Shown one piece after another: positions 11,311 through 47,518 of a stretch of DNA of 64,000 nucleotides. The position numbers and the translations under genes are program-made. The notes under the pieces were generated by a model. That model ran no database searches. It was given only the letters and a program-made list of their open reading frames with translations, and had not been told where the DNA came from. Origin of the DNA: Nitrosopumilus sp. (GTDB lineage: Archaea > Thermoproteota > Nitrososphaeria > Nitrososphaerales > Nitrosopumilaceae); the NCBI GenBank assembly GCA_965219345.1, contig OZ244732.1, positions 1,472,001 through 1,536,000 on the forward strand, written 5' to 3'. The first letter of the stretch is position 1, and each line of letters starts with the position of its first letter.

Positions 11311-11603
11311 GGTTCCGGCAAATTCTGGTGATTTACACCATAAATCATCAGACATGGTTCTTCTCCGAAGTTTACTGCAACCGCATCATACCAACGTTCA
11401 GAAAATAAATCATCAGACATGGTTCTTCCCCGAACCGCTCTTTGAAATCCTGGGATAACCAGTACCTGTAACTTTCTCGAAATATCCATCACAACCCTGC
11501 TGTGATAACTCCCTTTGAGCCATCACATAAACTTGGCACAAAACTGCAAAGTGCAATTCAGAGAAGATCCATATTTCACTCATCACCAGAATTTGCCAGA
11601 TCC
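11311..11603. mobile_element. IS6-like terminal repeat / MITE-like element
   Basis: Starts GGTTCCGGCAAATTCTGGTGAT and ends ATCACCAGAATTTGCCAGATCC (inverted, 2 mismatches); 11311-11503 is also an inverted homologue of ~30189-30321. Confidence 0.7.
11340..11434. repeat. Repeat-spacer-repeat unit 1: 30 bp duplication flanking a 35 bp insert
   Basis: ATAAATCATCAGACATGGTTCTTC(T/C)CCGAA at 11340-11369 and 11405-11434; insert 11370-11404 is absent from the paralogous copy at ~30260-30293. Confidence 0.8.
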
Positions 11604-11611
11604 TCCTAAAA

Positions 11612-12997
11612 TTGAACACTCATTTTGACCGCTATTCTTTTATCCGGCTATGTAATCGTAGATTATTGAATTTTAGCAATAAACTGACAATTCCAGTCAT
11701 TGTGGTTGCAGCATTGGTTCTGTTGGGGCTGGCAGCTTTGTCCATGGTGGTCATGCCGTACTCTGCAACTGACAGCCCGCAGACTGAGCCTGCGGCAACT
11801 CTATACGACCCCGCTGTTTCAGTTTCAGACATCAAGACAAATTCTGGCAACATGACAGAACATGCTGCAATTCCCAAAGACATTGTCACGGGCAACAACG
11901 ACTTTGCAGTAGACTTTTACAGGCAGATATCAGACAACGACAACAACATCTTCTTCTCACCTACAAGCATGTACATGGCATTCTCCATGCTATACGAGGG
12001 AGCGCGTGAAAATACGGCACAGCAGATTCAGCAGGTCTTCGGATTTGATCCCAACGAGGCCCTGCGTCACAACGCCACTGCGCACATAATGGCATCTGTC
12101 AATCAGGACGACCCGCATGTAACGCTTAACCTGGCAAATGCCATCTGGATTGCCGACTGGTTTGCCCCGTACGACTCATACACTGACATAATACGCAACA
12201 CATACCTTGCAAGTGCGGAAAAGGTCGATTTTATGGATAAGAATGACGGCATAAAGAGGATAAACAAATGGGCATCAGAGAACACTCAGGGCAAGATTGA
12301 CAAAGTAATCATAAAAAAAGATGTCAACAAGGACACCGCAATGGTGATCAACAGCGCCATATACTTCAAGGGAACGTGGCTGACGCAGTTTCCTGCAGAG
12401 GACACAAAGAAATCCGACTTTTACGGTAACGGTGCTGAGAGTACAAGCACAGACTTTATGAACGTGCATAACATGTTTGACTATTCCAGCATGGATGGTG
12501 TCCAGGTGCTCAGGATGCCGTACGACGGGGGCCGACTCTCGATGCTGATCCTGCTGCCGCACGACGCAGACGGGATACGGCAGCTTGAAGAGACTCTATC
12601 AGCAGGGCAGATAGAGCGATGGATGGCAGGCCTGAGAAACCAGGAAGTCACAGTGTCGGTTCCAAAGTTTGAGACCCGTGTAAATTATAAACTGAATGAG
12701 TTACTCATTGCCATGGGCATGGAAGACGCCTTTAACCCACGCAGTGCCAACCTGACTGGCATAGCAAAGGTGGAACCGGACAGAAATCTGTACGTTGACA
12801 AGGCATCTCAGGACGCATACGTAAAGGTAAACGAGGAGGGAACAGAGGCCGCAGCTGTGACTACCATAGTGGTTATAGCAGAGAGTCTGCCACCCCCACC
12901 ACCAAGATTTATCGCAGATCATCCATTCATCTTTATCATACAGGACGATGAGAACGGCACCATCCTGTTCATGGGAAGGGTGTCAGACCCGTCATAG
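11612..12997 (+). CDS. Serpin (serine protease inhibitor) with N-terminal signal/TM segment
   Basis: NIFFSPTS, AIYFKGTW, VPKF, VNEEGTEAAAVT hinge, F.ADHPFIFII, LFMGRV.DP; exact start uncertain. Confidence 0.95.
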   Translation: MNTHFDRYSFIRLCNRRLLNFSNKLTIPVIVVAALVLLGLAALSMVVMPYSATDSPQTEPAATLYDPAVSVSDIKTNSGNMTEHAAIPKDIVTGNNDFAVDFYRQISDNDNNIFFSPTSMYMAFSMLYEGARENTAQQIQQVFGFDPNEALRHNATAHIMASVNQDDPHVTLNLANAIWIADWFAPYDSYTDIIRNTYLASAEKVDFMDKNDGIKRINKWASENTQGKIDKVIIKKDVNKDTAMVINSAIYFKGTWLTQFPAEDTKKSDFYGNGAESTSTDFMNVHNMFDYSSMDGVQVLRMPYDGGRLSMLILLPHDADGIRQLEETLSAGQIERWMAGLRNQEVTVSVPKFETRVNYKLNELLIAMGMEDAFNPRSANLTGIAKVEPDRNLYVDKASQDAYVKVNEEGTEAAAVTTIVVIAESLPPPPPRFIADHPFIFIIQDDENGTILFMGRVSDPS

Positions 12998-13299
12998 GCG
13001 GGCCCATCCATTAGTTAGTGGCTCGTGTAAGTACATGCACAATTTGGATTGTGGTGCATATTCTCTACTACTCCATTGGCTTTGTACCATTCAATCTGTT
13101 CAGTCTGTGATTGACAGGCCGCCATTTTTGTGGATCTAGGTAATCCTTGTATCTTCATAGGATCTGGTTCTCCCTGAAAAATGTCGGGAGCTTTAATTTT
13201 GAGACTTTTGTATCTATTTCTAACTCGGGTTCTCCCATACGAAATCGTCTCTTATCTACTGCGGGCCATTCTCAGTGTGCTTTGCTGAATCAGGACATC

Positions 13300-15815: not shown

Positions 15816-18800
15816 GTGTGTGAAAATAAAGAGATGGAGAGAATTTCCTTTGTTATTTTAATTTCCACGCTGATGTTGGCCTCTTTGTCCATTGTTCCGG
15901 CACATGCGGCGGAGCACCCGACAATCATCGCAGCTTCTGTGACCTCGGCTACCAGCATAGTCCTGACGTACAGCGAGAACGTTGACGTCAACGCCACGGA
16001 CGGCGCAGGATTTGGCCTCTCTGACGGGGGAAAAGTGACGGCAAACACCGATCCCGCGGGTTCGGGCAACACCATAACCCTTACGGTCTCCGGCATTACC
16101 AACACATCCGATACTCCGGATGTGACTTATATCGAATCTGATGGCACCGTGGCAGACGGCGCATCAAACCCGGCAGCGAGCCAGATCTTTACCGGCACAG
16201 TAGATGATGCGCCGCCAACCGTGTCCTCCATTGCAACTTCCAGTGCATCGACAATTGATATCGTACTGTCCGAGAACGTCACAGTAAACGGTGCGGCACC
16301 AGGAGACTTTGTGCTGTCTGGCACCATATCCACAGACCCGACCGTGACTGGAATCACGGCCGCTGCAGACACGGTCACCCTTTCCCTTAACGATACGCTT
16401 GATGGCGATGATGTCATCAGACTGGCATACACCAGAACCATGAGCAGCATAGATGACATTTCTCTCACGTCCTTTGTCGACTCTTTCTCAGTGAAGGCAA
16501 TAGAAGACGAAGATCCGCGAAGCCTGGCCTTCTCTGGTGACGGATATAAGATATTTATTTTGGATGGTATTGCCGATGCCGTACACGAGTACACGCTAAC
16601 CGCCCCATTTGACATATCCAATGCCGCCCCTGTCAGCTCTTTCTCAGTGGCATCAGAAGACGAAGATCCGCGAGGCCTGGCCTTCTCTGGCGACGGAACA
16701 AAGATGTTTGTCGTGGGTACTTTTGACGATGGTGATGTACACGAGTACGCGCTAGCCGTCCCCTTTAACATATCCGATGCCACCTCTGCCAATTCCTTCT
16801 CAACGAGATCACAAGACTCATACCCGCGAAGCCTGGCCTTCTCTGGCGACGGAACAAAGATGTTTGTCGTAGATAGTATTGGTAAGGACGTAAACGAGTA
16901 CACGCTAACCGCCCCATTTGACATATCCAATGCCACCTTTGTCGACTCTTTCTCACTGGTGCCATCAAACGTAACATTCCCACAGGGTTTGACCTTCTCT
17001 AATGACGGAACAAGGATGTTTGTTGTAGATAGTAATAGTAACGATGTACACGAGTACGCGCTAACCGCCCCCTTTGACGTATCGACCGCCACCTTTGTCG
17101 ACTCTTTCTCACTGGTGCCATCAAACATAGCATTCCCACAGGGTTTGACCTTCTCTAATGACGGAACAAGGATGTTTGTTACGGATTTTGATACCTCTGA
17201 CGTATACGAGTACGCGTTATCAAAGCCATTTACGCTATTCCCGCAGCCAAACTCCCTTGACAGCTTTGTGACAACCCTGGTCACAAACAACATTGTTCCG
17301 CCAACAATCACCGCGGCTGCCGTGACTTCCCTTACCGAGATAGTCCTGACGTACAGCGAGAACGTTGACGTCACAACCACAAACGGCGAAGGATTCACCC
17401 TATCTGTCGGAACGGTGACGGCAAACACCGATCCCGCGGGTTCGGACGACACCATAACCCTTACCGTCTCTGGCATCACAACATCCGATGCTCCAGTTAT
17501 AACTTACATCGCTCCACCTGGCACCGTGGTTGACGCGGAATCAAACCCGGCAGCAGACCAGACCTTTACCGGTACAACCGATGACGCGCCGCCAATCGTG
17601 TTCTCCATTGCAACTTCCAACATGTCGGCAATTGACATCGTGCTGTCCGAAGACGTCACAGTCAGCTCCGTGGCACCGGAAGACTTTGTGCTGTCCAGCA
17701 CCATATCCACAGACCCTACCGTGACCGGAATCACGGCCCTTAACGACACGGTCACCCTTTCCCTTAACGACACGCTTGCCCATAATGATGTCATCAGCCT
17801 GGCATACAACAAAGCCACGGGCAGCATAGATGACATTCTTGCTCCTCCGTCCTTTGTCGGCTCTTTCTCGGTGGCTTCACAAGACAACACTCCGACAGGC
17901 CTGGCCTTCTCTGATGACGGAACAAAGATGTTTGTCGTAGGTCTTACCGGCACTGACATAAACGAGTACGCGCTAACCGCCCCATTTGACATATCCAATG
18001 CCGACTTTGTCGACTCTTTCTCAGTAGGCTCACAAGAGGCATTCCCGGCAGACCTGGCCTTCTCTGCTAACGGAACAAAGATGTTTGTCATAGGTCTTGC
18101 CGGCAATGACATAAACAAGTACACGCTAACCGCCCCATTTGACGTATCCACTGCCTCCTTTGTCGACTCTTTCCAAGTATCTCAAACGGATATATCCCCG
18201 CGGAGCCTGGCCTTCTCCAACGACGGAACAAAGATGTTTGTTCTGGATATTTTCGGCGGTGACAGTTACGTAAACGAGTACACGCTAAATGGCCCCTTTG
18301 ACGTATCCACTTCCTCCTTTGTCGACTCTTTCTCAGTGGCATCACACGCACCATCCCCGCAGGGTCTGGCTTTCTCTGATGACGGAACCAAGATGTTTGT
18401 TTCGTCTTCTGACAACGATGCCGTAATCAAGTACGCATTAACCGCCCCCTTTGACGTGTCCACTGCCTCCTTTGTCGACTCTTTCTCCGTGTCATCACAG
18501 GGATTCGCCCTGACAGCCCTGGCCTTCTCTGATGACGGAACAAGGATGTTTGTTCTGGAAAATGACAGCAATGCCGTATACGAGTACGCGCTGTCAGAGC
18601 CATTTACGCTATTCCCGCAGCCAAACTCGCTTGCCAGCTTTGCGGCAATGTCGGTCACAAACAACATTGTACCGCTAGACACCGTTCCACCAACAATCAC
18701 CGCGGCTGCCGTGACCTCCCTTACCGAGATAGTCCTGACGTACAGCGAGGACATAGACGTCACAACCACAAACGGCGCGGGATTCACCCTATCTGTCGGA

Positions 18801-21800
18801 ACGGTGTCGGCAACCTCTGATCCCGCGGGTTCGGACGACACCATAACCCTTACCGTCTCTGGCATCACAACATCCGATACTCCAAACGTGACTTACACCG
18901 CATCCGACGGCTCCGTAGCAGACAGCGCATTAAACCAGGCAGCGAGCCAGACCTTTACCGGCACAACCGATAACGCGCCGCCAACCGTGCTCTCCATTGT
19001 AACTAACGACACATCAACAATTAACATCGTGCTGTCCGAAAACGTCACAATAAACGGTGCGGCACCGGAAGACTTTGCGCTGTCCAGCACCATATCCACA
19101 GACCCGGCCGTGACCGGAATCACCGCTGTTACAAACAACACGGTAGCCCTTGCCCTTGACGATACGCTTGACAGCAATGATGTCATCCTACTGGCATACA
19201 CCAAGACCACGGGCAGCATAGATGACATCCCTCTTCCGCCCCTTGACGGCTCCTTCCCAGTAGATATGCAAGACTCGGAATCAACTGGCCTGGCCTTCTC
19301 TAATGACGGAACAAGGATGTTTGTAGTGAGTACTGGTAGTGATAGCGATAACGATGCCGTACACCAGTACACACTAACCGCCGCCTTTGACGTGTCCACT
19401 GCTACCTTTGTCGACTCTTTCTCAGTAGGTTCACAAGACACATTCCCGTCAGGCCTGGCCTTCTCTGGTGACGGAACAAAGATGTTTGTTGTGGGTAGTT
19501 TCGACAATAACATAAACGAGTACACACTAACCACCGCCTTTGACGTGTCCACTGCCACCTCTGCCAACTCCTTCTCAGTATCCTCACAAGACATACTCCC
19601 GCTAGACATGGCCTTCTCTGCTGACGGAACAAAGATGTTTGTCTTGGGCGATGCTGGCGATGACATAAACGAGTACACGCTATCCGCCCCCTTTGACGTA
19701 TCGAATGTCGCCGGCACATCGGATGTCACCTTTGTCGACTCTTTCCCAGTGGCATCACAAGACAGATCCACGCAGGGCCTAACCTTCTCTGCTGACGGAA
19801 CGAGGATGTTTGTAGTGGGTAGTATCAACGGTGCCGTATACGGGTACGCACTAACCGCCGCCTTTGACGTGTCCACCGCCACCTTTGTCGACTCTTTCTC
19901 AGTGACATCACAAGACAGATTCCCGCGGGGCCTGGCCTTCTCTGCTGACGGAACGAGGATATTTGTCTTGGGTAGTGACAGCAAGAACGTACACCAGTAC
20001 GCGCTATCTGAACCATTTACGCTATTCCAACAGCCAAACTCCCTTGCCAGCTTTGCGGCAATGTCAGTCACAAACAACATTCCATCAGACACCACCCCGC
20101 CAACAATCACCGCAGCTGCCGTGACCTCCCTTACCGAGATAACCCTGACGTACAGCGAGAACATAGACGTCACAACCACAAACGGCGAAGGATTTACCCT
20201 ATCTGTCGGACAAGTGACGGCAAATACTGATCCCGACAATTCGGACGACACCATAACCCTTACCATCTCCGGCATCACCGCATCCGATGCTCCAGACGTG
20301 ATTTACACCGAGTCTGATGGCTCCGTGACAGACGGCGCATCAAACCCTGCAGCGAGCCAGACCTTTACCGGCACCACCCCGCTGCCGGATACTATTCCAC
20401 CAACAATCACCGCAGCTGCCGTGACCTCCCTTACCGAGATACTCCTGACGTACAGCGAGAACATAGACGTCACAACCACAAACGGCGAAGGATTCATCCT
20501 ATTTGTCGAAGGAACGGTGTCGGCAAACTCTGATCCCGACAATTCGGGCAACACCATAACACTTACCGTCTCCGGCATCACCGCATCCGATGCTCCAAAC
20601 GTGATTTACACCGAATCTGATGGCTCCGTGACAGACGGCGCATCAAACCCGGCAGCGAGCCAGACCTTTACCGGCACCACCCCGCTGCCGGACACCGTTC
20701 CACCAACAATCACCGCAGCTGCCGTGACCTCGGCTACCAGCATAACCCTGACGTACAGCGAGAACATAGACGTCACAACCACAAACGGCCAAGGATTCTC
20801 CCTCTCCGTCGGACAGGTGACGACAAACACCGATCCCGCCGGTTCGGCAGACACCATAACCCTTACGGTCTCCGGCATCCCCTCTACCTCTCATAGACCG
20901 GATGTGACTTACGCCGCATCTGATGGCACCGTGACAGACAGCGCGTCAAACCCGGCAGCAAGCCAGACCTTTACCGGCACAGTAGATGATGCGCCGCCAA
21001 CCGTGTCTTCCATCGAAACTTCCAGCACATCAACAAATGCAATTGATGTCGTGCTGTCCGAAGACGTTACAGTCAACTCTGTAGAATCCAGGGACTTTGT
21101 ACTGTCTGGCACCATATCCACAAACCCGGCCTTGACCGCAGTCACGGTAGCTGCCGACACGCTCACCCTTCACCTTAACGCTGCGCTTGCTCATGATGAT
21201 GTCATCAATCTGGCATACACCAAAACCACGGGCAGCATAGATGACATTGCTCTCCCGTCCTTTGTCGACTCTTTCCCAGTGGCTTCACGGGATACATTCC
21301 CGTCAGGCCTGGCCTTCTCCAACGACGGAACAAAGATGTTTGTCGCAGGTGATAGCACCGATTCCGTACACCAGCACGTGCTGTCCGCCCCCTTTGACGT
21401 ATCCACTTCCAACTTTGTCCGCTCTTTCTCAATAAACGCACAAAGCACATCCCCGCAGGGTCTGGCCTTCTCCAACGACGGAACAAAGATGTTTGTCACA
21501 GATAGTTTCAAAAGTACCGTAAACGAGTACACGCTGTCCGCCCCCTTTAACATATCCAATGCCACCTTTGTCCAATCTACCTCCCTGGCTCTAAATGCTT
21601 TACAGCCACACGGTCTGGCCTTCTCTACTAACGGAACACTGATGTTTGTCGCAAGTGATTTCAACGATAGCGTATACAATTACTTGCTGTCCACCCCCTT
21701 TGATCTGTCGTCTTACATCCCTATCGACTCTTTCTCAGTGGCATCACAAGATGTAGATCCACGGCACCTGGCCTTCTCCAACGACGGAACAAAGATGTTT

Positions 21801-24800
21801 GTCACAGGTGATGCTAGCGATAGCGTACACGAGTACACACTATCCCGCCCCTTTGACACACTCACTGCCGACTTTGACAGCTCCTTCTCCGTGTTCTCAC
21901 AGGATACATCCCCGACAGGCCTGGCCTTCTCCAATGACGGAATAAGGATGTTTGTCGTGGGTGATTTCGGCAATGACATAAACGAGTACATACTGCCAAA
22001 GCCATTTGCGCTATTCCCACAGCCAAACTCCCTTGCCAGCTTTGCGGCAACCTTGGTCACAAACAACGTTGCACCGACACCGCCACCCGATGACATTGAT
22101 CCCTCGATAGATACCACCCTGCCAACAATCACCGCAGCTGCCGTGACCTCCCTTACCGAGATACTCCTGACGTACAGCGAGGACATAGACGTCACAACCA
22201 CGGACGGCGAAGGATTCGCCCTTTCCACCGGAACGGTGCATGCAAACACCGATCCCGCCGGTACGGCAGACACCATAACACTTACCGTCTCCGGCATTAC
22301 CGCATCCGATGCTCCAGACGTGATTTACACCGAGTCTGATGGCAACGTGGAAGATACCGCGTCAAACGAGGCAGCGAGCCAGACCTTTACCGGCACCACC
22401 CAGCTGCCGGACACTATTCCACCAACAATCACCGCAGCTTCCGTGACCTCGGCTACCAGCATAACCCTGACGTACAGCGAGAACATAGACGTCACAACCA
22501 CAAACGGCGCGGGATTCTCCCTTTCCACCGGGCAAGTGTCGGCAAACACCGATCCCGCCGGTTCGGACGACACCATAACCCTTACCGTCTCTGGCATCAC
22601 AACATCCGATGCTCCAGCTATAACTTACATCGCTCCACCTGGCACCGTGGTTGACGCGGAATCAAACCCGGCAGCAGACCAGACCTTTACCGGCACAACC
22701 GATGACGCGCCTCCAACCGTGTCCTCCATTGCAACTGCCAGCACATCAACAATTAACATCGTGCTGTCCGAAAACGTCACAATAAACGGTGCGGCACCGG
22801 AAGACTTTGTGCTGTCCAGCACCATATCCACAGACCCGGCCGTGACCGGAATCACCGCTGTTACAAACAACACGGTAGCCCTTGCCCTTGACGATACGCT
22901 TGACAGCAATGATGCCATCCTCCTGGCATACACCAAGACCACGGGCAGCATAGATGACATCCCTCTTCCGCCCCTTCTCAGCTCCTTCCCAGTAGGTATA
23001 CAAGGCTCGGGATCAAACGGCATGGCCTTCTCTAATGACGGAACAAGGATGTTTGTAGTGAGTAGTGGTAGTGGTAGCGATAACGATGCCGTACACCAGT
23101 ACACACTAACCGCCCCCTTTGACGTATCCACTGCCACCTTTGTCGACTCTTTCTCAGTGGCATCACAAGACACAGTACCGCAAGGCCTGGCCTTCTCTGG
23201 TGACGGAACAAAGATGTTTGTTGTGGGTGGTTTCGACAATAACATAAACGAGTACACACTATCCGCCGCCTTTGACGTGTCCACTGCCACCTCTGCCAAC
23301 TCCTTCTCAGTGGCATCACAAGACACAGCCCCGCTAGACATGGCCTTCTCTGCTGACGGAACAAAGATGTTTGTCTTGGGCGGTGCTGGCGATGCCGTAT
23401 ACGAGTACACGCTAACCGCCCCCTTTGACGTATCGAATGTCGCCGGCACATCAGATGTCACCTTTGTCGACTCTTTCCCAGTGGCATCAGAAGACACAGC
23501 CCCGACAGGCCTGGCCTTCTCTGGTAACGGAACTAGGATGTTCGTTGTAGGTAATTTTAACGATGCCGTATACGAGTACGCACTAACCGCCCCCTTTGAC
23601 GTGTCCACTGCCACCTCTGCCAACTCCTTCTCAGTATCCTCACAGGACCAATCCCCGACAGGCCTGGCCCTCTCTGCTGACGGAACGAGGATATTTGTCT
23701 TGGGTGATAACAGCGAGAACGTACACCAGTACGCGCTATCTGAACCATTTACGTTATTCCTACAGCCAAACTCCCTTGCCAGCTTTGCGGCAATGTCAGT
23801 CACAAACAACATTGCATCACCACCCGCTGAAATTGATCCCTCGATAGATACCACCCCACCAACAATCATCGCAGCTGCCGTGACCTCCCTTACCGAGATA
23901 CTCCTGACGTACAGCGAGGACATAGACGTCACAACCACGGACGGCACGGGATTCGCCCTCTCCGTCGGAACGGTGCATGCAAACACCGATCCCGCCGGTT
24001 CGAACGACACCATAACCCTTACCGTCTCCGGCATCGCCGCATCCTATACTCCAGCTATAAGTTATACCACATCTGATGGCACCGTGACAGATACCGCGTC
24101 AAACCAGGCAGCAAACCAGGTCTTTGCCGGCACCACCCCGCTACCCGATACCACCCCACCAACAATCACCGCAGCTGCCGTGACCTCGGCTACCAGCATA
24201 GTCCTGACGTACAGCGAGAACATAGACGTCACAACTACAGACGGCGAAGGATTCGCCCTCTCTGATGGAGGAACGGTGTCGGCAAACTCTGATCCCGCCA
24301 GTACGGACGACACCATAACCCTTACCGTCTCTGGCATCACAGCATCCGATGCTCCAAACGTGATTTACACCGAGTCTGATGGCTCCGTGACAGACAGCGC
24401 ATCAAACCCGGCAGCGAACCAGACCTTTACCGGCACCACCCCGCTGCCGGACACCGTTCCACCGGAAATCACCGCAGCTGCCGTGACCTCGGCTATCAGC
24501 ATAGTCCTGACGTACAGCGAGAACATAGACGTCAGCACCACAAACGGCCAAGGATTCTCCCTCTCCGTCGGACAGGTGACGACAAACACCGATCCCGCCG
24601 GTTCGGCAGACACCATAACCCTTACGGTCTCCGGCATCCCCTCTACCTCTCATAGACCGGATGTGACTTACGCCGCATCTGATGGCACCGTGACAGACAG
24701 CGCGTCAAACCCGGCAGCAAGCCAGACCTTTACCGGCACAACCGATGACGCGCCGCCAACGGTATCTTCCATCGAAACTTCCAGCACATCAACAAATGCA

Positions 24801-30321: not shown

Positions 30322-30535
30322 GGTGTTGCCGTTGTTGCAGAAATTATTCTTGTATCTGACATTTTTGTCCTGATTGAGAAGATGGTTTTTTCTTAAAAAG
30401 TCAAAATAATTGAGAATTAGTGTTATGTTGCGTTAGTGGAGCTTGACTCATAATTTTTACACTAGAAAGTTGGCGTGAGTTTTCGACAAATCAAAATAGA
30501 TGTAAAGATAGGGTGGTAGATAAAAAGTTAGGTGA

Positions 30536-31509: not shown

Positions 31510-31521
31510 AAAGAAAAAAAA

Positions 31522-32055
31522 TTAATTGAATGACCGGAGCTCGGATTTGAGCGAGTCTACGTCATAGGATGATTTCACATAGCTGTTTGCTGCAATCCCA
31601 TCCTTGATTTTGTAGACACCAGACTCAATTCCAGTGAGGTAGTAATTGTCCTTGTAGATACTATCAGTATCCTTTGACAAAAAGACAATGACCTCGTCTC
31701 TTTTATTCAATTCTGTGTCGTGCATCGACTCTTGGCTGATGTTGTTGTAGGTTCCACCATCTACAACAAACTCCATGGTTTTAGAGTATTGGCCTTTGAG
31801 TGATTCACTTTGGTGTAGTTCCCATACAGTATACACTGAGGGAAACGCCACGTTTCCACTAACCTCCCATTCAACATATGACCTGCTGTCTCCGAGGGTT
31901 CCATGTGCTACCAATATGCTTCGATCTACCAGATCTTCGTTACCGTAAACGGGGGAGTATGCTTCGGTAACTATGCTCATGGGTATGATTCCTCCAAAAT
32001 ACGCTCCTGGAATAACTAGAATGGTAGCCAGCGGTATCAATATCTTTTTGTTCAT
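31522..32055 (-). CDS. Secreted or membrane-anchored hypothetical protein
   Basis: N-terminal hydrophobic segment (KKILIPLATILVIPG), then a soluble beta-rich domain. Confidence 0.7.
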   Translation of the reverse strand: MNKKILIPLATILVIPGAYFGGIIPMSIVTEAYSPVYGNEDLVDRSILVAHGTLGDSRSYVEWEVSGNVAFPSVYTVWELHQSESLKGQYSKTMEFVVDGGTYNNISQESMHDTELNKRDEVIVFLSKDTDSIYKDNYYLTGIESGVYKIKDGIAANSYVKSSYDVDSLKSELRSFN

Positions 32056-32175
32056 ATCAATACTTGTTTGCCAGGCTCCATTGCTTGTTGAATTAAAAAT
32101 CCACTAATATTTTTTTCATTTTCTGGAACCCGGCAGATTTTGACAGTACGGGTCAGGCAGGCTCGTAAATTCTCT

Positions 32176-33407: not shown

Positions 33408-33789
33408 ATACTGACAGACTGAATGCGTTTAAAAAGTCATGATGGCGTGCAGATCTGATAAATTGTCGGGCATGGTTGTGTTAATGAGGATGGTATTCTT
33501 GGCACTGTTCAAAATTGTAGATCACAGTGGAATCCCAGGCTCTGGTAAATCTAGGTGATCTACAGTTCTTGTTGGTCAAAAGTGAGCTTTTTAGATCTTC
33601 TCCCGATTCAGACTCGCACAGTCCAGGCCAATGCAGTCTGGCTGTTCAAAAGTGATCCACCCTTTGACCTGCTGTTCAAAAGTGATCCGCATACCCTGCT
33701 GTTAAATTTTTGTGATCACTTTTATCTTTCATAACATTAGGATCTTGCCATTTAACACGAAATCCAATAGAATTGCCAATGGCAACTAG

Positions 33790-34212
33790 CTAGTTTATTC
33801 CAGAATGCATGTCTTCCGGTTTCACCATCTTCGATAGTGTAAGTGCGATCCCTAAGGTGTCTCGTGGAAACCAAATACCTGTATGAGACGGATAATCTTC
33901 CTCCTGTAAGTCTTCAATCCGAAGTTCATTGTCATGTTCAGAATTTATGGTTTTTTTAGCATCCCCCACATTAAGAACTGCAAACCGTCCGTTTGTTGTT
34001 GTACTGTGATGTCTGCCAAACTCTTCTCTTACTTTCTTCATACCTCTTTCCAAATCTGGCATACCAAAATATTCAATCCAGTTAGATGATAAAAAATTTT
34101 CATCATCACGAAACTCAAAGGCAGCTGGCATTGGAAGATTATTTCCATTAAGTCTAGTGGCTGAACAATATCTTGCCACATGGCTGTCACTACAAAGGGG
34201 CTTGGTCATCAC
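33790..34212 (-). CDS. Hypothetical protein, candidate ART/RES-like toxin
   Basis: VARY...PAAF...LSSNW...SHTGI pattern; overlaps the upstream gene by ATGA; function is inference. Confidence 0.6.
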   Translation of the reverse strand: MMTKPLCSDSHVARYCSATRLNGNNLPMPAAFEFRDDENFLSSNWIEYFGMPDLERGMKKVREEFGRHHSTTTNGRFAVLNVGDAKKTINSEHDNELRIEDLQEEDYPSHTGIWFPRDTLGIALTLSKMVKPEDMHSGIN

Positions 34213-34937
34213 ATAATCAATTTATCTACAAATTCTTTGATATGATACATTATTTTATGTGAAGGTAATACTCCGCTGATTTTTCGCTGTGGTGATGTTG
34301 GATCCTGTTGACTAAACACAACTGCAAACATGATGTCACCAGATGTTAGAAAATTCATTGCCAAGGTACCATAGTCTGGTATCTCCCAAACTGCCTGCAA
34401 GAGTCCATTTGGGTTTATTCCAATATCTGGATTCGGAAGTTGGGATTCAGATATTATGAACCGGGCAAAATTTTGTAGCGAGCTAGATACAATCGATTTT
34501 TCTTCTTGTTCTTTCTCAATTATTTCGTGCAAAAATGTCAATCGCCTTGCAATGGCATTAGATCTGAATATTTTAATTTCACTAATGACATCTTTTACTT
34601 TTGTTGTATGCTCAATCGGTACATACAGTAAGGAAGGCTTTCCTGCATGTGCTTCATAACTAGATAATATACCTTCATCATGTTGGAATGAAATGAATGT
34701 GTTCAATCTTTCCTCCATGTTTGCAGTAATCGCCATCAACAGGTCATCTGTTTTTTTCATTTCTTTTATTTTATCATCATCGAGAATAACAAATCTGTCC
34801 GAGGTTGGTCCCCCAAATACCTTAGACCTTTCGTATTCTTGTTTTTGAGGTGTTACCAGATTGTATAGCTGTTCAAGCACTTTCAACCGTAGGATGTCTG
34901 ACCCAAAACCTGATGACTTGTAAATGATTGTAGACAT
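34209..34937 (-). CDS. Hypothetical protein (middle gene of the cargo operon)
   Basis: 242 aa ORF; C-terminal P.PDIGINPNGLLQAVW motif; tightly coupled to neighbours. Confidence 0.65.
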   Translation of the reverse strand: MSTIIYKSSGFGSDILRLKVLEQLYNLVTPQKQEYERSKVFGGPTSDRFVILDDDKIKEMKKTDDLLMAITANMEERLNTFISFQHDEGILSSYEAHAGKPSLLYVPIEHTTKVKDVISEIKIFRSNAIARRLTFLHEIIEKEQEEKSIVSSSLQNFARFIISESQLPNPDIGINPNGLLQAVWEIPDYGTLAMNFLTSGDIMFAVVFSQQDPTSPQRKISGVLPSHKIMYHIKEFVDKLIM

Positions 34938-34940
34938 GTA

Positions 34941-35588
34941 TTATGTACTCTCCAATATCTCATTCAACTTGGACTCAATAATATTTTTGGCACGACCCCA
35001 TCCAGTCAGCACGTGTTCCATACTCTCTACAGAGTCAAACGGACCATCATGATGAAGATTGCAATCTATGACCACCGATGGTGTTTTCTTATCACCACGA
35101 CGCATTGTTTTCCACCTAAAGTTGAGATTCAGTGTAGCTTTATCGGTTTTTATAATAAATCGAGGTATCATCTCAATATTGTTGTCTAGTTGTTCAGATT
35201 TTAGAAACTTTTGAGTCATCCATTGCAGCGGTTCGTTATTTTCAATTGACACAACACAATTGAGGCCTATGGCCTGATATGATACATGGGGAAGCTTTTT
35301 GATGTATGATGCAGCGAGACGGTGAATCTCGTCTTCGTGTTCATCCGTAAATGGCACATTGTAATTTTTACTAATATCAAGTATTTGTTGATCTACTAAC
35401 CACTTGATTCCATTGTCATATTGTATCATTGATACGGCCGGAGTACTAATTGTTTCAACTGTTTCCCATTTGCTATCTACTATGTTGTTGTTTGCCAGAA
35501 AGTCTCTGTTCAGTATGGAGGGGTTGTGAAATTTGGCGATAACGACAACGGTGACTGAGTGCAGCCAGAAAGATACTTCGCTAGACAT
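34941..35588 (-). CDS. Hypothetical protein resembling TIGR04255-like family
   Basis: SVTVVVIAKFHNPSIL..FL, LPHVSYQAIGLN, IDCNLHHD pattern; family call is tentative. Confidence 0.6.
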   Translation of the reverse strand: MSSEVSFWLHSVTVVVIAKFHNPSILNRDFLANNNIVDSKWETVETISTPAVSMIQYDNGIKWLVDQQILDISKNYNVPFTDEHEDEIHRLAASYIKKLPHVSYQAIGLNCVVSIENNEPLQWMTQKFLKSEQLDNNIEMIPRFIIKTDKATLNLNFRWKTMRRGDKKTPSVVIDCNLHHDGPFDSVESMEHVLTGWGRAKNIIESKLNEILEST

Positions 35589-35709
35589 GGGGTATCACAC
35601 GTTTTACAGTATAATTTTGTCTAGTGCAAAAAGAGTAGCATTGCCGAACCAACCTATTCACAACATTGACCGTAATTAATTAAAAGGTATCGGCATTATG
35701 CTCTAGTCC

Positions 35710-36777
35710 TCTATTGTACGGAAATTATGTCGCGCGCCAAGAGTCCGGCGTACTGCCCAAGAGTATTTTACACTACACAAGTCCAGGCATCCCATGCCAA
35801 TACGCCTGACCGACAAGGCCATCCGATACGCCGTCAGGCAGCTGGAGAAGGGCAAAGACACCAAGACGGTCGCAGAAGAGATCAACGTCACCCAGAGGCA
35901 TGTGCAGCGGCTGTGGGCCGAATTCAACAGGACCGGTTCGATCCACGTCCAGCAGCCTGCAGGACGGCCGGCAGATCTCCCACCGCCCGACGAGGAAACC
36001 AATATGGTATTAGACGTTCACGGACGCAAGCCGGAGGGTGTGCTACGGACAGCCAAGAGGCTTCGGAAGGAGGGACACGATATAAGCTACTCCCGCGTAT
36101 ACCAGATAATGAAGTCCAACGGCCTGGTCATCGACTCCCCGGCAAAGTCGAGGAAGCGCAAGTGGGTCAGGTACGAGCGCCTGTACTCGAATGCCATGTG
36201 GCATACTGACTGGCATGTGATGAAGGATCCGCGCATGAAGGATCTGAACCTGATCACGTATCTTGATGATGCCTCCAGGTGCGTTACGGGCGCGGCATTG
36301 TTCAAGGAGGCCACCTCAGAGAACGCGGTGGCGGTGCTCCGGCAGGCAGTCGGCAGGTTCGACGTGCCGGCGACCATCCTGTCCGACAACGGCTCGTGCT
36401 TCGTCGGCAGGGGCGGCCGCAAGAGGCAGACAGGCACCTGGACTCCGACCCTCTTTGAGAACGAGCTGCTGGACCACAACATAGGGCTGATCAATTCAAG
36501 ACCGTATCACCCGCAGACCAACGGAAAACTGGAGAGGTTCCACAGGAGCATCGAGGAGGAAATATGGCACTATGACGGGCTGGACGACTATGTCGAGTAC
36601 TACAACACGGACAGGCTGCACTTTTCACTGGACATCGACAACTACGAGACGCCGCTGATGGCGTTCCGCAACAAGAGGGCTACCGACGAGATAAGACAGC
36701 AGAATTCCAGATGGATGGAGGCAGATATCAATGACTGACGACCCAGACAGGGGGCGACATGATTTTCATATATTACA
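35710..36777 (+). mobile_element. IS481-family element nested in the cargo transposon
   Basis: Imperfect 24 bp inverted ends TCTATTGTACGGAAATTATGTCGC / GCGACATGATTTTCATATATTACA; visibly higher GC; no clear TSD. Confidence 0.75.
35794..36738 (+). CDS. IS481-family DDE integrase-type transposase
   Basis: N-terminal HTH, WHTDWH, YLDDASR, LSDNGSCF, YHPQTNGKLERFHRS, YNTDRLH. Confidence 0.92.
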   Translation: MPIRLTDKAIRYAVRQLEKGKDTKTVAEEINVTQRHVQRLWAEFNRTGSIHVQQPAGRPADLPPPDEETNMVLDVHGRKPEGVLRTAKRLRKEGHDISYSRVYQIMKSNGLVIDSPAKSRKRKWVRYERLYSNAMWHTDWHVMKDPRMKDLNLITYLDDASRCVTGAALFKEATSENAVAVLRQAVGRFDVPATILSDNGSCFVGRGGRKRQTGTWTPTLFENELLDHNIGLINSRPYHPQTNGKLERFHRSIEEEIWHYDGLDDYVEYYNTDRLHFSLDIDNYETPLMAFRNKRATDEIRQQNSRWMEADIND

Positions 36778-36830
36778 CTCTGCCCTCGGCGGCAAAAAGG
36801 TCTTAAACTTCCCATAGCCTGATCCAGTAA

Positions 36831-38444
36831 TTGGGCAAGACCATGACAAGGTACTATCCACAGAGTACCGGCATAGAATCCTCAAAGCCAAAGTCGTGCT
36901 ACTGCGGGCACGGCGACGACTTTAGGACGATATCCAGGGCAGACAAGAACGACACGCGCTACATGTGCAACAAGTGCAAGAAGAGTTACATTGTCAGGAA
37001 TCCAGAAACGGACAGACAGCAGATCAAAAAGATGGGCAGCATCTTGGACAACATCATACTCGGGATGAGTTCAAGGCAGACGTGCCTCAAGATGTTTATA
37101 GACTGGGGCCACGTCATAAAGCACCCCACCATACTCAGTTGGTCAAAGAACCACGTCCAGTACGCAAAGATGTTCACAGACGACATACTCTGCTGCCTAG
37201 AGTATGGGAGCGTGTGGGGGATAGACGAGACGGCAATGGACATACGCGGGTGGTGGCATGAGGCAGACCCCGAGATCCTCTCCCAGATGAGGACAATCGA
37301 GGAGAAGGCAAGGGAGTACGGGCTTCTAAAGGATCCCGAATTCAAGAAGGAATGGGAGAGGCTGCGCGCAAGGTCAGAAAGGTCAAAGAGGAGTGCAAAA
37401 AAGAAATGGCTTACGGCAGTCGTCGACCTGAAGACGAGACTGGTCATACACTACATCATCACCGACAAGCGTCCAGACAACAAGGACATCTACCGCCTCG
37501 TCAAGATGGCCACCGTCGTGGCAGGCATGCCCACAAACATCATAACTGACTGCTACTTGGCATACAAGCCCGCAATCCGAAGGCTTACCGGGGACATTGA
37601 AAAGCAGGGCGGGAAGCTGAACCACATACTGGTGCGCGCAAAAAACCAGAGCGAACTCCACTTTAAGCCGAAAAAACCCACAAACGGCGTTCCCAACCAC
37701 AACAACAGAATCGAGAGCGCATGGTCGACCATAAAGAGGAATATGGACATAATGTCCGGGTACGGGGAGTACCATTCTGACCACGTTATCAGCTACAACA
37801 TCATAAACCACAACTTCATCAAGCCGCATTCCTCCCTGAGAAAGTTCAGGACAGTCAGGCAGGGGCAGGCAAACATGGTAAACATGACTCCGGCCATGGA
37901 GGGGGGATACCCAAAGTGGTTTGCCAACTTTAACGAGTTGCTCACAGAATCGTGGGGGTATGACAAGTCGTTTATCTTCAAGCTCGGTCCGAGGATGCTG
38001 GACAGGCTCCGCGTCGGCATACGGGGTAGGAAGACGGTGGCCATAGCCGTCAAGAAGCGGACTGCAAAAAGCATGGTTGCAAAGATAGACAGGAAGCTTC
38101 AGACAGAGTGTGGGTTTGAATACGTACCGGAGAGAAAGGAGTGGAGGCGCGAGATACCGTCTATTATGAACATGAACAGGAGGCGCGAGGACAATATGGG
38201 TGCGGTAATGCCGATGCAGACATTTGAGGTGTGCAACAGGTGCGGACTGGCAGCACTTACCACGCAGACCGTGGTTGAACTCATCGGATACAGAAAATCC
38301 AATGGCAGGATAATCACGCAGCCAAACTGCCATAGGTGCAGAAACAAACTCTCAAGGAACCCCAAGCGCCGCACTGGGCAGAACCGCAAAAAAATGACTG
38401 AAAAGTCAGTCCTTTTGGGCATTCAGAAGAGGCTTGACTGTTGA
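36831..38444 (+). CDS. IS6/IS240-like DDE transposase, unusually long (537 aa)
   Basis: N-terminal Zn finger, WGIDET, WLTAVVD.KTR, IITDCYLAY, NNRIESAWSTIK, HNFIKPHSSL, C-terminal CNRC..CHRC; stop codon falls in the right TIR. Confidence 0.85.
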   Translation: MGKTMTRYYPQSTGIESSKPKSCYCGHGDDFRTISRADKNDTRYMCNKCKKSYIVRNPETDRQQIKKMGSILDNIILGMSSRQTCLKMFIDWGHVIKHPTILSWSKNHVQYAKMFTDDILCCLEYGSVWGIDETAMDIRGWWHEADPEILSQMRTIEEKAREYGLLKDPEFKKEWERLRARSERSKRSAKKKWLTAVVDLKTRLVIHYIITDKRPDNKDIYRLVKMATVVAGMPTNIITDCYLAYKPAIRRLTGDIEKQGGKLNHILVRAKNQSELHFKPKKPTNGVPNHNNRIESAWSTIKRNMDIMSGYGEYHSDHVISYNIINHNFIKPHSSLRKFRTVRQGQANMVNMTPAMEGGYPKWFANFNELLTESWGYDKSFIFKLGPRMLDRLRVGIRGRKTVAIAVKKRTAKSMVAKIDRKLQTECGFEYVPERKEWRREIPSIMNMNRRREDNMGAVMPMQTFEVCNRCGLAALTTQTVVELIGYRKSNGRIITQPNCHRCRNKLSRNPKRRTGQNRKKMTEKSVLLGIQKRLDC

Positions 38445-38755
38445 TCACAAAAATTTAACAGCAGGGTCTGCGGATCACTTTTGAACGGCAAGTCAGAAGG
38501 CAGATCACTTTTGAACAGCCAGACTGCATTGGCCTGGGCTGTGCGAGTCTGAATCGGGAGAAGATCTAAAAAGCTCACTTTTGACCAACAAGAACTGTAG
38601 ATCACCTAGATTTACCAGAGCCGAATCCCATAATCAATACGAGTCAGATCACCAAAAATGGACAGTGCCGGGTTGAATTAGATCTGATCCACAATTTTGA
38701 GCAGAGCCGACAGCAAGTATTCCTCCAAGTGCCACGTATCATCGTCCAAGTTTTC

Positions 38756-38865
38756 CTGGATCTACGCGTCCAACTGCATCGCTTGTTCTAGTTCCTATAC
38801 TGGGCCCAAGCCTTGGATATGGAAACCAGCTGGATCTACGCGTCCAACTGCATCGCTTGTTCTAG
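38756..38865. repeat. Repeat-spacer-repeat unit 4: 36 bp duplication flanking a 38 bp insert
   Basis: CTGGATCTACGCGTCCAACTGCATCGCTTGTTCTAG at 38756-38791 and 38830-38865. Confidence 0.95.
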
Positions 38866-38964
38866 CCCTTTAAAAACAACGGCCTGCAATGTAAAACGTG
38901 GTTACTTTAAACGACGATACCGTGGCATATTACGTTATATAACCTAATCATTTTAAAGTACAGA

Positions 38965-39351
38965 TTGAGTACGCAGTCAGTCTCACGAAAACAACTAATT
39001 TTAGAAATTCAAGGAAAATCTAAAATTCCTTGTGATCTCAAACGTCATTTATCTCCAAGAACTGTTGGAACTATAATGAGATCTTTGCCATTAGAAGGGC
39101 ATGCTCATCTTTTCGGACAAAGTACTTTGTATTTTGAAACTAGTATTGATTCTGGAATTGAAAGAGCAAGAACCGAATTCAAAAAAGGTGATGTTTCATT
39201 CTTGCCTTCATCAGGAAGCATCTGTTTTTTTATCAATGATGTAAAATCTGGAAAAACTATGACGCCTATTGGAAAATTGAGTGGTAATATTGATGCGTTA
39301 AAGGATGTTAAATCTGGTGATGTATTTCGTATCTATGAAGAAACTGCTTGA
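38965..39351 (+). CDS. Cyclophilin-like fold protein
   Basis: SPRTVGTIMRSLP...LYFET...KKGDVSFLP..GSICFF...PIGK. Confidence 0.75.
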   Translation: MSTQSVSRKQLILEIQGKSKIPCDLKRHLSPRTVGTIMRSLPLEGHAHLFGQSTLYFETSIDSGIERARTEFKKGDVSFLPSSGSICFFINDVKSGKTMTPIGKLSGNIDALKDVKSGDVFRIYEETA

Positions 39352-39644
39352 TACAAATGATGTCCTGAATAACCACCAACTCGTTTAACAGTACCTTTCT
39401 TTGCAGATTCTCTTAAAAATGCATTTGCAGCAGAAATTTTAATTCCTGTCTGTCTTGCAAGATCTTGAATTGTGATAACTTTGGAGTTTTGAATAATTTT
39501 CATCGCTTGCTGTTCGTTTATTGTGACTACGATCTCTGCTTTCTTTGGTCCGCCTTCTCCTTTGCCTTTCTTTGATTTCTTTGAATCTTTAGCTTTTTCT
39601 GGCTTGTCTTTTTTCGCAGCAGTTGGTTTCTTTGCTCCACCCAT
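39333..39644 (-). CDS. rps25e: Ribosomal protein eS25
   Basis: Lys-rich N-terminus; KVITIQDLARQTGIKISAANAFL winged helix. Confidence 0.85.
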   Translation of the reverse strand: MGGAKKPTAAKKDKPEKAKDSKKSKKGKGEGGPKKAEIVVTINEQQAMKIIQNSKVITIQDLARQTGIKISAANAFLRESAKKGTVKRVGGYSGHHLYQAVSS

Positions 39645-44830: not shown

Positions 44831-44949
44831 GTCTGTCATTTATTTTAAATATTGTTACAAAGTCAGGACCACTTACAGTAAAGCTCAAGGTATCGCCATT
44901 CTCATCAGATGCAAATATGCTTTGAGAGTAAGAGCCGCCAGCAGGTAGT

Positions 44950-46249
44950 CAGTAGTCGGAAATGTCCCCATAAAACCAGCCAACAGATGCTCTCTGATGC
45001 GTTAACATTTTTCGATCATACAGATCTATTATCTACAGTGCCCTTACCCACCTTAGTGTTAGTGCAAAAAGGTGGGCAGGTACACCGTAACAAGATTGGA
45101 GAAAGGATACTTAATACCTTGTCAGCAATACTAGAGTCTTCATCCATAGGATTCTCTACTAGGAAGAATGCTCAATATGGGGTAAGCGAGTTTGTAGCCA
45201 TACTGATGAAGATGTCTGAATCCAACATAGCTTCCGAGGAAGCAATCAGGCTTCTCAAGCACGCAGAAAAGAAGATGCCATCACCCAAGTGGTTTCGCAA
45301 CAGGATAAACTCGCTGGGATCAGGCAGTGCAGACAAACTCTGCAGGGACATGCTCACACGCACCGCAAGACTTGCCAAGAATACATGCCGATACAAGGGA
45401 GGCGTACTAGTAGCAATAGACAAGCACCTGATACCAAGGCATGACAAGGACAACATGTCACATTTGACAAGATCCAAACCAAAGGGCGGTACAAGTAAGT
45501 TCGAGTGTTACGCAACAATGCATGTGGTAGCAGAACGGGTTCCTGCCATTTTGGAGTGCATGCAGGTAACGCGCAGCGTGGATGATGCCGATTTTGTGCG
45601 TAAATTCGTACAAAAACTCAAGGGTTACAGGATACGGGCCCGGCTGCTGCTGATGGACCGCGAGTTCTACTCTACTGAAATAATCAATCTTGTATCAGAA
45701 CATAGATGCAAGTTCCTGATGCCTGCAGTCAAGAACGCGGGGATAAAGAGGATGATACGGGAGCACCACGATAAATCACGCAAGGCAGTCTCACAGTACG
45801 CCATCAGAAACGCAGCAGGTCAGTCTGCCACATTTACATTGATAATCACGCCATCAAAAAAGATAGACGATCCTGATGCTGACATCACGGAAAGATACAA
45901 TGTCTTTGCCACCAACCTTTCCCCAGCCAAGGCATTAGAAGAGATTGAGACGCTTCCAGATGAGTACAAGAGTAGGTGGGGAATAGAGACAGGATACAAG
46001 CAGGTCGAGCAGGTGCGTCCGAGGACAACAAGCCGCAATGCGTCATTTAGGGGAATCATGTTTCACGTCTCGATGTTCATGTACAATGCATGGGCAGTGG
46101 AGCAGTACCGAACAGATTCAAATTATGATCGGGTAACCCTGGCACTTGTCGCATATGCTACGGCAATGGCTGCGTTGGAATTATGCAGGATGGCGGGTCA
46201 ACCGTATGATGTCGGAGGATCTGCCTAAGAGGCATATTTCCGACTACTG
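44950..46249 (+). mobile_element. ISH3-like (IS4 superfamily) insertion sequence, 1,300 bp
   Basis: Perfect 14 bp TIRs CAGTAGTCGGAAAT / ATTTCCGACTACTG; 5 bp TSD GTAGT at 44945-44949 and 46250-46254. Confidence 0.93.
44987..46228 (+). CDS. ISH3-like DDE transposase
   Basis: VAIDKHLIP, LLMDREFYS, YKSRWGIETGYK; start must lie inside the TIR, so the ORF-track start 44909 is too far upstream. Confidence 0.88.
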   Translation: MLSDALTFFDHTDLLSTVPLPTLVLVQKGGQVHRNKIGERILNTLSAILESSSIGFSTRKNAQYGVSEFVAILMKMSESNIASEEAIRLLKHAEKKMPSPKWFRNRINSLGSGSADKLCRDMLTRTARLAKNTCRYKGGVLVAIDKHLIPRHDKDNMSHLTRSKPKGGTSKFECYATMHVVAERVPAILECMQVTRSVDDADFVRKFVQKLKGYRIRARLLLMDREFYSTEIINLVSEHRCKFLMPAVKNAGIKRMIREHHDKSRKAVSQYAIRNAAGQSATFTLIITPSKKIDDPDADITERYNVFATNLSPAKALEEIETLPDEYKSRWGIETGYKQVEQVRPRTTSRNASFRGIMFHVSMFMYNAWAVEQYRTDSNYDRVTLALVAYATAMAALELCRMAGQPYDVGGSA

Positions 46250-47409
46250 GTAGTGTAAGATCATTTATTGGTTGAATTGCAGGAGATCGTACTCCAATGA
46301 GAGTAGTTGTTGTGGAATGGTTAGAATACTCTCCTATTCCTTGCGAGTTTCTTGCCTGAATTCTGTATGTGTATTGTGTGTTGTCTGTTACTGTACTGTC
46401 TGTGTAGGTATTTGTGGTGTGATCGCCATAACTATTCTCCAGTGTTACAAATGAGCCAGCTCCAGTCTGCCTTTGAATGATATAGTGTATGATGTCACTG
46501 CCGCCATCAAATGGCGGACTCCATGAGAGGACAACTGATGAGGATGTGCCAGTTGCTAGAACGTCAGTTATTGTGCTTGGTATGCTCAAATCATAGATTG
46601 CAAAATTATCAATCACCACATCTTCTGTGTTTCCATTTTCTTGGGCAGTAAACCTTACACTAAAGTCATCGTCTCTCCATGCAGAAATATCATATGTCTG
46701 AGTATGCCAGTTGCCATCAAAGTCACGCCCACTATCCCACAATTCTATCTGGTTCCAAGTAGTTCCATCATACACCTCAACTAGGACATAGTCATGTGGA
46801 GGTCGATTTCTTTCAGTGCCATCAAGAGAATTATCAAGCCACCTATCAAATTCCAGTCTTGGGTTGGCAAAACCAGATATGTCAAACTCGTTAAATGTCA
46901 TGATACACGCCACATCACAATCCCTGGAGCGTACTACATTTCCTTCTCGTCCATCAAATTCAGAACCAGATACTATCTGCCATGTGTCATAGTCATGTGT
47001 GTCAGGTGGAATCTGTGCATCTGCAATTATGCTCCAAAAGCCCAATCCGTTATCAAACGAATCTGAAACTCCAGAACCAGTAGCTGTGATGCTTTGCACA
47101 TCTATGTGTATGGTACCTGTGGTGGTATGGCCGTCTCTTCCATCAGTTGCGGTATATGTAAAAGAGTCAAACCCAATGCTACGAGGAGTATACCTTATCT
47201 GGCTTGAGGTAGGAGTGATGTTGGGTAAAGCGTTTGTATCTAGTATTCCCAAAGATGGATAACTGCCAATACTAAATGAAATGTGATCAAGGTCAGCGTC
47301 AGTTGTAGTTATAGGTATTATGATTGGCGGGCCATTTACTGTAACGTTATGATTGGTAAGTAATAATGGCGGTGTGTTTGGTACTGCAAGGAAACCACAG
47401 TCTGCCCTA

Positions 47410-47518
47410 GTTGCAGCCCCTGCACCAAAGGTTCCAGGTGCACATTCGGCTCTAGATTTATGACAGATATGGGAGGTCTAAGGTTGCAGCCCCTGCACCA
47501 AAGGTTCCAGGTGCACAT
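47410..47518. repeat. Repeat-spacer-repeat unit 5: 36 bp duplication flanking a 37 bp insert
   Basis: GTTGCAGCCCCTGCACCAAAGGTTCCAGGTGCACAT at 47410-47445 and 47483-47518. Confidence 0.95.

Follow-up and report, generated by a model that had tools for sequence, protein, structure and literature searches.

A 64,000-nucleotide stretch of a Nitrosopumilus sp. genome (hereafter the window; positions 1472001-1536000 of contig OZ244732.1, called C1, in assembly GCA_965219345.1) carries five short units in which two copies of a local host segment flank a spacer-sized insert. Comparison with the remainder of the genome (G000; two contigs, 1.91 Mb in total, 36% GC, C1 accounting for 1.87 Mb) and with its relatives indicates that these units very probably arose by natural off-target spacer integration, carried out by the genome's own type I-G Cas4/1-Cas2 proteins, which belong to a CRISPR system. 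The five units are given below in window coordinates as first copy / insert / second copy.

11340-11369 / 11370-11404 / 11405-11434: unit 1, 30/35/30 bp, one mismatch between the copies (family D13)
31080-31114 / 31115-31150 / 31151-31185: unit 2, 35/36/35 bp, inside a minus-strand IS1595-family transposase gene (family D12)
32869-32905 / 32906-32941 / 32942-32978: unit 3, 37/36/37 bp, in a minus-strand gene with no assigned function (family D9)
38756-38791 / 38792-38829 / 38830-38865: unit 4, 36/38/36 bp, between a DDE transposase-like open reading frame and a cyclophilin-like one (family D10)
47410-47445 / 47446-47482 / 47483-47518: unit 5, 36/37/36 bp, inside a large minus-strand gene for an fn3/Ig-domain protein (family D11)

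A first-pass annotation had described the same five repeat/insert/repeat arrangements, and all of them were recovered at the same places, both by inspection of the sequence and by an independent repeat search in which they formed the two-copy families D9-D13. The start-to-start distances of units 1 to 5 in that search are 65, 71, 73, 74 and 73 bp. The duplicated target of unit 3, 36-37 bp long, grows to 40 nt if one mismatch is allowed. The open reading frame found at unit 2 (30536-31057) matches PF12762. Exact direct repeats of at least 24 nt at a distance of 20-300 nt are expected 1e-5 times in the 1.87 Mb contig, and repeated 14-mers at 20-300 nt spacing number 18,956 in the real contig versus 8 in a shuffled one. 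The units therefore cannot be due to chance. The window holds five of them where 1.3 would be expected (Poisson P=0.012).

The same arrangement recurs along the whole of C1. The first-pass annotation had read the five units as probable Cas1-type integration outside any array, which predicts a genome-wide length peak, and this peak is sharp: a first scan for direct repeats 20-300 bp apart gave 40 isolated units, of which 23 repeat at 71-75 bp, with 36 bp as the commonest length of the duplicated segment. A more tolerant list (period 60-85 bp, repeat 24-46 bp, CRISPR array excluded) contained 55 candidates; 16 were dropped as tandem repeats in coding sequence and 39 isolated units were kept. Their periods fall at 70-76 bp in 29 cases (the core units), at 64-68 bp in nine and at 81 bp in one. 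The duplicated segment of the core units measures 36 bp in 11 and 37 bp in 9 (20/29 together), and their inserts are 32-40 bp long, mostly 36-38. Two of the 39 are second copies of one event that was duplicated with a repeated element (C1:37490 equals 243305, and 1826944 equals 1483340, which is unit 1), so that about 37 independent events remain. The five window units had been treated as one set; four of them belong to the core class, but unit 1, with its period of 65, falls into the separate smaller size class. The first-pass annotation had also placed the units in accessory or mobile DNA. They are indeed about three-fold enriched in multi-copy DNA (13/39, against 11% of the contig; P=2e-4, duplicated events counted in), but they are not confined to it, since 26 of the 39 lie in single-copy sequence.

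The dimensions of the units are those of the single CRISPR locus of the genome, whose components are as follows.

C1:1639572-1641257: Cas4g/Cas1g fusion, 561 aa, upstream of the array (NF049935, 754 bits, cut-off 560)
Likewise upstream of the array: Cas2 (65.7 bits)
C1:1641728-1653821: sole CRISPR array in the genome, 164 repeats of 36 nt and 163 spacers
Downstream of the array, opposite strand: Csb2, Cas7g, Cas8g1 and Cas3g

The array and its flanking cas genes constitute one complete type I-G system. Spacers are 35-40 nt long in 150/163 cases and, with repeats of 36 nt, they give the array a period of 71-76 bp (150/163 periods), the same as that of the units. Thus a Cas1 homologue is encoded in the genome together with Cas2, and the 36-nt repeats and 35-40-nt spacers match the units exactly, as the idea of Cas1-type integration had implied. 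The nearest relatives of the Cas4/1 gene are found in Nitrosopumilus, and the neighbourhood of the locus includes the genes for ribosomal proteins S4e and L24P/L26e and for the RNase P subunit p29, which are marks of an archaeon. The unit nearest to the array is at C1:1638625, 3 kb upstream. The units are nonetheless not members of a canonical CRISPR array, in which one repeat is common to all units and lies beside a leader: each has a different repeat, drawn from local gene sequence, and a search of the genome for the array repeat with up to 6 mismatches returned 164 matches, all inside the array and none beyond it. Tandem duplication by slippage was likewise rejected, the two copies being separated by an unrelated 32-40-bp insert and the self-similarity of the units at other shifts being at most 0.48.

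Uninterrupted copies of the target sites show that window units 1, 2 and 3 are insertions with target duplication. Two paralogues of the unit 1 site (C1:1823202-1823564 and C1:951376-951506) contain the segment once and lack the insert. At unit 2, the alignments of the two flanks to a paralogue (C1:788936-789568) overlap by exactly 35 bp. At unit 3, the flanks align to an orthologue in another species (G018, 87-89% identical) with an overlap of 35 bp, and the insert is absent. Six units on C1 (1335276, 1503080, 243305, 404166, 919312 and 1483340; 1503080 and 1483340 are window units 2 and 1) have paralogues in which the two flank alignments share a stretch as long as the duplicated segment, the insert being absent. 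No uninterrupted copy of the unit 4 site was found. At the DNA level the flanks of unit 5 are absent from the 24 same-genus genomes drawn, which hold no uninterrupted allele.

Several of the insertions break genes. In silico removal of one copy and the insert joins frames of 439 and 257 aa at unit 5 into a single frame of 666 aa, extends the frame at unit 2 from 218 to 304 aa, and likewise fuses open frames at several units elsewhere. At unit 3 the same operation restores no long frame (202 and 173 aa become 205 aa); this gene is otherwise damaged, and next to the duplicated segment, for instance, there is a 10-bp difference between it and the G018 orthologue. Units also interrupt Pfam domains, with overlapping profile positions on the two sides, in the genes for a UDP-glucose dehydrogenase (PF00984, positions 2-27 and 9-93) and an ABC permease (PF00528, positions 1-85 and 66-174). 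The further genes hit encode an FMN reductase, a Kazal-domain protein, a metallophosphoesterase, the IS1595 transposase and the fn3-domain protein. A 75-bp unit at C1:88227 lies in frame within a 4943-codon open frame, a giant repeat gene, and leaves that frame intact.

The first-pass annotation had named inserts that match adjacent sequence as evidence against its reading. The inserts are not derived from there; their sources are remote sites on the chromosome or DNA that this genome lacks. Their mutual unrelatedness holds as well, as they share no common sequence apart from the copies duplicated with paralogous elements. Eight of the 37 independent inserts copy distant parts of C1, seven of them over their full length with 97-100% identity, whereas none of the 163 array spacers matches its own genome. 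The insert of unit 5, previously taken for foreign DNA, reproduces exactly the minus strand of C1:249804-249840, within a gene conserved in relatives; in 11/24 same-genus genomes nothing else in a 1.1 kb query finds a match. For the insert of unit 1 (35 bp), the sole match in the genome is the copy of the unit within the repeated element at C1:1826944. The inserts of units 2, 3 and 4 have no match in their own genome; those of units 2 and 4 have none in a phage collection, and 30-31-nt parts of all three gave no exact match among viral contigs. On the small contig C2 no insert matches over more than 13 nt. The 29 other inserts have a GC content of 44.7%, close to that of the array spacers (42.0%, P=0.14) and distinct from that of random genomic 37-mers (35.9%, P=4e-7). 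The inserts would thus behave as spacers unfiltered by selection. Three of the seven full-length source sites (C1:523291, 561910 and 575144) lie within 52 kb of each other, beside the maximum of the cumulative GC skew of C1, a weak curve with its maximum at about 580 kb and its minimum at about 1540 kb. This cluster may be a hot spot generating spacer precursors.

The duplicated segments also share a weak end preference. A motif search over 36 sites gave 5.75 bits, compared to 3.81 +/- 0.24 (maximum 4.30) in 40 controls. One end of the segment tends to begin with 5'-GT, with a C two bases upstream; GT is found at the segment end of 9/28 G000 sites (background 9.4%, P=8e-4) and of 4/12 sites in a related genome, G055 (P=0.03). 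As the reverse complement of the CRISPR repeat begins with GCTTCA, the GT end plausibly corresponds to the repeat-spacer junction. Paralogous copies of one target were in two cases hit twice, with different inserts (404166 and 1448839; 1483340 and 1824847).

Units of the same kind are present in relatives. The Cas4g/Cas1g fusion was found above the cut-off in 10/121 genomes of the genus. In the 1.19 Mb scanned of one of them, G055, 12 independent units have periods in the range 70-76 bp; the scan gave 17 rows, from which four copies of one repeated element and one duplicate were dropped. At two G055 loci (C1:198815-198995 and 325797-325976 of that genome), three copies of a 36-bp host segment enclose two different 35-37-bp inserts each, and these loci are two-spacer mini-arrays on non-CRISPR sequence. 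The first 396 kb of three further genomes, G123, G017 and G002, were scanned, and G123, which has a I-G system, contains five units. Among 46 loci around Cas4/1 genes, arrays were detected in 32, with repeats of 36 nt (29 loci), 37 nt (2) and 38 nt (1). In a locus from a Nitrosopumilus sp. metagenome-assembled genome (MAG; L015:4945-5054), an isolated 37/36/37 unit is located about 150 bp upstream of the first I-G array repeat, in the presumed leader region. In a Caldilineaceae bacterium MAG (L051:3963-4071), a 36/37/36 unit splits the cas4/cas1 fusion gene itself, whose two halves correspond in alignment to residues 21-343 and 338-561 of its G000 counterpart. It appears that the integrase put a spacer into its own gene, in a bacterium.

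The element excluded from the G055 count is present in five copies (C1:307648, 481088, 677192, 840946 and 959069 of that genome), with the same 36-39-bp repeat and 33-36-bp insert. It is either an insertion that spread with a mobile element or a native 24-codon duplication.

The scheme that we infer, in which the catalyst (Cas4/1-Cas2), the sequence of the two attacks and the part played by selection are all deduced, would run as follows. The integrase would carry a spacer-sized fragment of about 35-40 bp, whose two 3' ends would, in the normal reaction, be joined at the two ends of the first CRISPR repeat (36 bp) to both strands. Off target, the same paired attacks, staggered by 36 bp, would take place at a non-CRISPR site, and repair of the two single-stranded gaps would leave the 36-bp target duplicated on both sides of the insert. 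Sites where the duplicated segment starts with 5'-GT at one end would be favoured and a few of them would be hit repeatedly. The fragments would be supplied by the pool that feeds the array and by pieces of the cell's own chromosome. Since self-derived inserts outside the array should give no guide RNA, selection would not remove them, and insertions that break dispensable genes or mobile elements would persist. The persistence of so many units might, as a guess, reflect relaxed selection in a host-associated lineage, as hinted by the serpin, Kazal and fn3 proteins. The first-pass annotation had suggested a system that inactivates foreign DNA by spacer insertion, for which we found no support in that form: two thirds of the units are in single-copy DNA, including metabolic genes, and purifying selection combined with a weak target preference is therefore the more economical account.

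Several other origins can be weighed against this scheme. Assembly or sequencing errors are an extremely unlikely source. Public short-read data do show contigs that break at the direct repeats rather than bridging the units: of the words sampled from window 30500-39500, four runs of one study contain 86-92% and one run of a second study 27%, and contigs of three first-study runs and one second-study run stop or start inside the repeats (e.g. at 32898, 32949, 38836 and 47489), so that the units are neither bridged nor seen uninterrupted. None of the three contig joints listed in the public runs skips a unit. However, errors would not be expected to yield like units in four separate genomes (G055, G123, G017 and G002) and in the individual records described above, to be copied along with repeated elements, as three units were, to produce periods and insert lengths that track the cell's own CRISPR array, or to insert exact copies of distant loci. 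A different enzymatic or repair process, such as one driven by a casposase or by an unknown transposase that makes a long target duplication, or else break repair capturing filler DNA, is improbable as well, if less so. Casposon-type Cas1 homologues, in open frames of about 410-450 aa, do occur in other genomes of the genus. However, PF01867 matches in G000 only the I-G cas1 gene and one 83-aa fragment; the casposase alternative raised by the first-pass annotation is thus unnecessary, none having been found. Casposons are kilobase-sized elements that encode a casposase of the Cas1 family and a family B polymerase and have terminal inverted repeats and a short target duplication. The inserts described here are 32-40 bp long, and a casposon was rejected on this ground and on the lack of a casposase-type Cas1 in G000. 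Copies of insertion sequences and of miniature inverted-repeat elements share sequence and terminal inverted repeats and likewise make a short target duplication. They were rejected since the inserts are mutually unrelated and the duplications span 30-38 bp, whereas the target duplications known for casposons and insertion sequences are 15 bp or less. The inserts have no common sequence, and by eye they lack terminal inverted repeats. Filler capture predicts neither the 36-bp stagger nor an array-matching insert of 35-40 bp.

Off-target spacer integration by the cell's own Cas4/1-Cas2 therefore agrees best with the length peak, the presence of Cas1, the dimensions of the array and the sources of the inserts, although a number of observations weigh against it. 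Cas4/1-Cas2 is implicated solely through matching dimensions and co-occurrence. G017 has only a 43-residue Cas4/1 fragment, yet carries four units with a period of 72-75 bp in the 396 kb scanned, and G002, with no Cas1 match, yet carries one; for these two genomes it must be assumed that a system was formerly present and then lost. The likeness of the targets to the CRISPR repeat is marginal, with a mean of 12.7/36 matches versus 11.8 in controls, a value reached by 21/2000 control sets, and similarity over the whole length of the repeat was set aside as the basis on which sites are chosen, the 5'-GT end preference alone holding up. No clear adjacent motif accompanies the seven full-length source sites on the chromosome, a TT beside one side being present in only 3/7. 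Finally, strict 36-bp spacing predicts none of the nine units, unit 1 among them, whose duplicated segment spans 27-36 bp and whose period is 64-68 bp.

The origin of the smaller 30/35 class, to which unit 1 belongs, is uncertain. Units with a 30-32-bp segment and a 34-36-bp insert (period 64-67 bp) could have been made by a second adaptation module with 30-nt repeats, since lost, instead of by the I-G proteins, a possibility to which we give a little less than an even chance. The periods of the 39 units are bimodal, with nine at 64-68 bp (one at 68, none at 69) and 29 at 70-76 bp. In G017 and G093, the arrays next to Cas1 genes of 318-338 aa are built of 30-nt repeats with a period of 64-69 bp. 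Moreover, the 83-aa Cas1 fragment of G000 (C1:1123019-1123234) is 62% identical to the G017-type Cas1 and 29% to the cell's own Cas4/1, and appears to be a relic of a second CRISPR system that has been lost. However, there is no 30-nt-repeat array or remnant near this fragment, and G017, which carries the 30-nt system, has no unit near a period of 65 bp in 396 kb. In addition, two of the eight independent small-class events lie within 1-7 nt of an event of the 36-bp class on the same target in a paralogue, and this coincidence suggests one enzyme with one site preference.

Other features of the window were noted alongside. A full-length serpin gene (11612-12997; PF00079, E=1e-117) adjoins unit 1. 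A 4746-codon open frame (15816-30056) consists of 153-nt (51-aa) repeats with 52-56% GC in a genome of 36% GC, and similar giant repeat genes are found at C1:74-92 kb, 187-201 kb and 1012-1026 kb. Perfect tandem arrays comprise a 15-nt unit repeated about 30 times (49398-49880) and a 24-nt unit repeated about 5 times (10733-10876). Contigs from three public runs join 44943 straight to 46249, omitting 1305 bp that cover most of a 439-aa open frame at 44909-46228 and have an approximately 10-fold higher depth. This stretch looks like a multi-copy mobile element that is missing from the site in part of the population.

The mechanism proposed here is already known from experiments, but we found no report of it on this scale in nature; the natural scale, the recurrence across a clade, the self-derived inserts, the mini-arrays and the hit in cas1 give the case its value. 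Adaptation by type I-G (formerly I-U) Cas4/Cas1 fusions was the subject of Almendros et al. in 2019 (NAR), a study reportedly concerned with selection of the protospacer-adjacent motif and with acquisition into the array. The adaptation module of G000 is of the same kind, a Cas4-Cas1 fusion with Cas2. We know of no report of chromosomal off-target products for type I-G, and in our literature search, with most subscription journals outside its reach, neither Nitrosopumilus nor type I-G systems turned up in any account of such events. The type I-E system in which off-target integration was followed in Escherichia coli reportedly has a 28-29-bp repeat. As cited by later papers, E. coli cells over-expressing Cas1-Cas2 form 'neo-CRISPR' arrays by off-target integration (Nivala, Shipman and Church 2018, Nat Microbiol); what that study offers from natural genomes is described by the same citing papers as 'circumstantial' and concerns two other species. 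The E. coli products, as far as they are described there, resemble ours in that a spacer-sized insert is flanked by a repeat-length duplication of a non-CRISPR target, and repeated hits can build a small array. Unlike that artificially over-expressed type I-E system, the present case is natural, with about 37 events in one genome and an archaeal I-G Cas4/1 fusion; moreover, the events are common to a clade, and both the uninterrupted sites and the loci from which inserts came can be pinpointed. In vitro, integration off target has been described for Cas1-Cas2 of Pyrococcus furiosus (PMC6698737) and of Thermotoga profunda without HU (PMC13769266). In these accounts Cas1-Cas2 alone enters non-CRISPR DNA at sites that have a few repeat-like features, fidelity depending on extra factors. 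Those were plasmid reactions in the test tube, whereas here the products lie in chromosomes and show only a weak 5'-GT preference. Isolated CRISPR arrays reportedly have repeats that resemble the cognate CRISPR repeat. Off-target acquisition has been put forward as one route by which such isolated or orphan arrays form away from cas genes (Shmakov et al. 2020, CRISPR J, as cited in PMC13142298). Unlike such arrays, each unit found here has host gene sequence as its repeat and mostly a single insert.

This genome and its relatives together offer dozens of clean events from nature, for which uninterrupted sites can be identified and in some cases the exact source of the insert, an uncommon trace of an immune system acting to the detriment of the genome that encodes it. 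The isolated direct-repeat peak at a period equal to repeat plus spacer length provides a genomic signature by which such events can be found elsewhere. Several questions become testable: the cost of adaptation to the host, through the broken genes and self-derived inserts; what the integrase samples before self-targeting spacers are purged (8/37 inserts versus 0/163 spacers); which target features the Cas4/1-Cas2 integrase recognises without a leader; and whether new CRISPR arrays arise by off-target integration. On balance we lean, by a narrow margin, towards the view that the I-G adaptation module of this lineage continually mutates its own genome from within by insertion and also gives rise to new CRISPR arrays. 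If so, it would have broken dozens of genes, including cas4/cas1 itself in the Caldilineaceae bacterium, and the inserts would form a record of integrase sampling unfiltered by selection, about one fifth of it the cell's own DNA. In a sister species, two ordinary gene segments would be seen in the act of becoming arrays with three repeats and two spacers, and these genomes would then hold natural experiments on the cost of CRISPR adaptation and on the birth of arrays from nothing.

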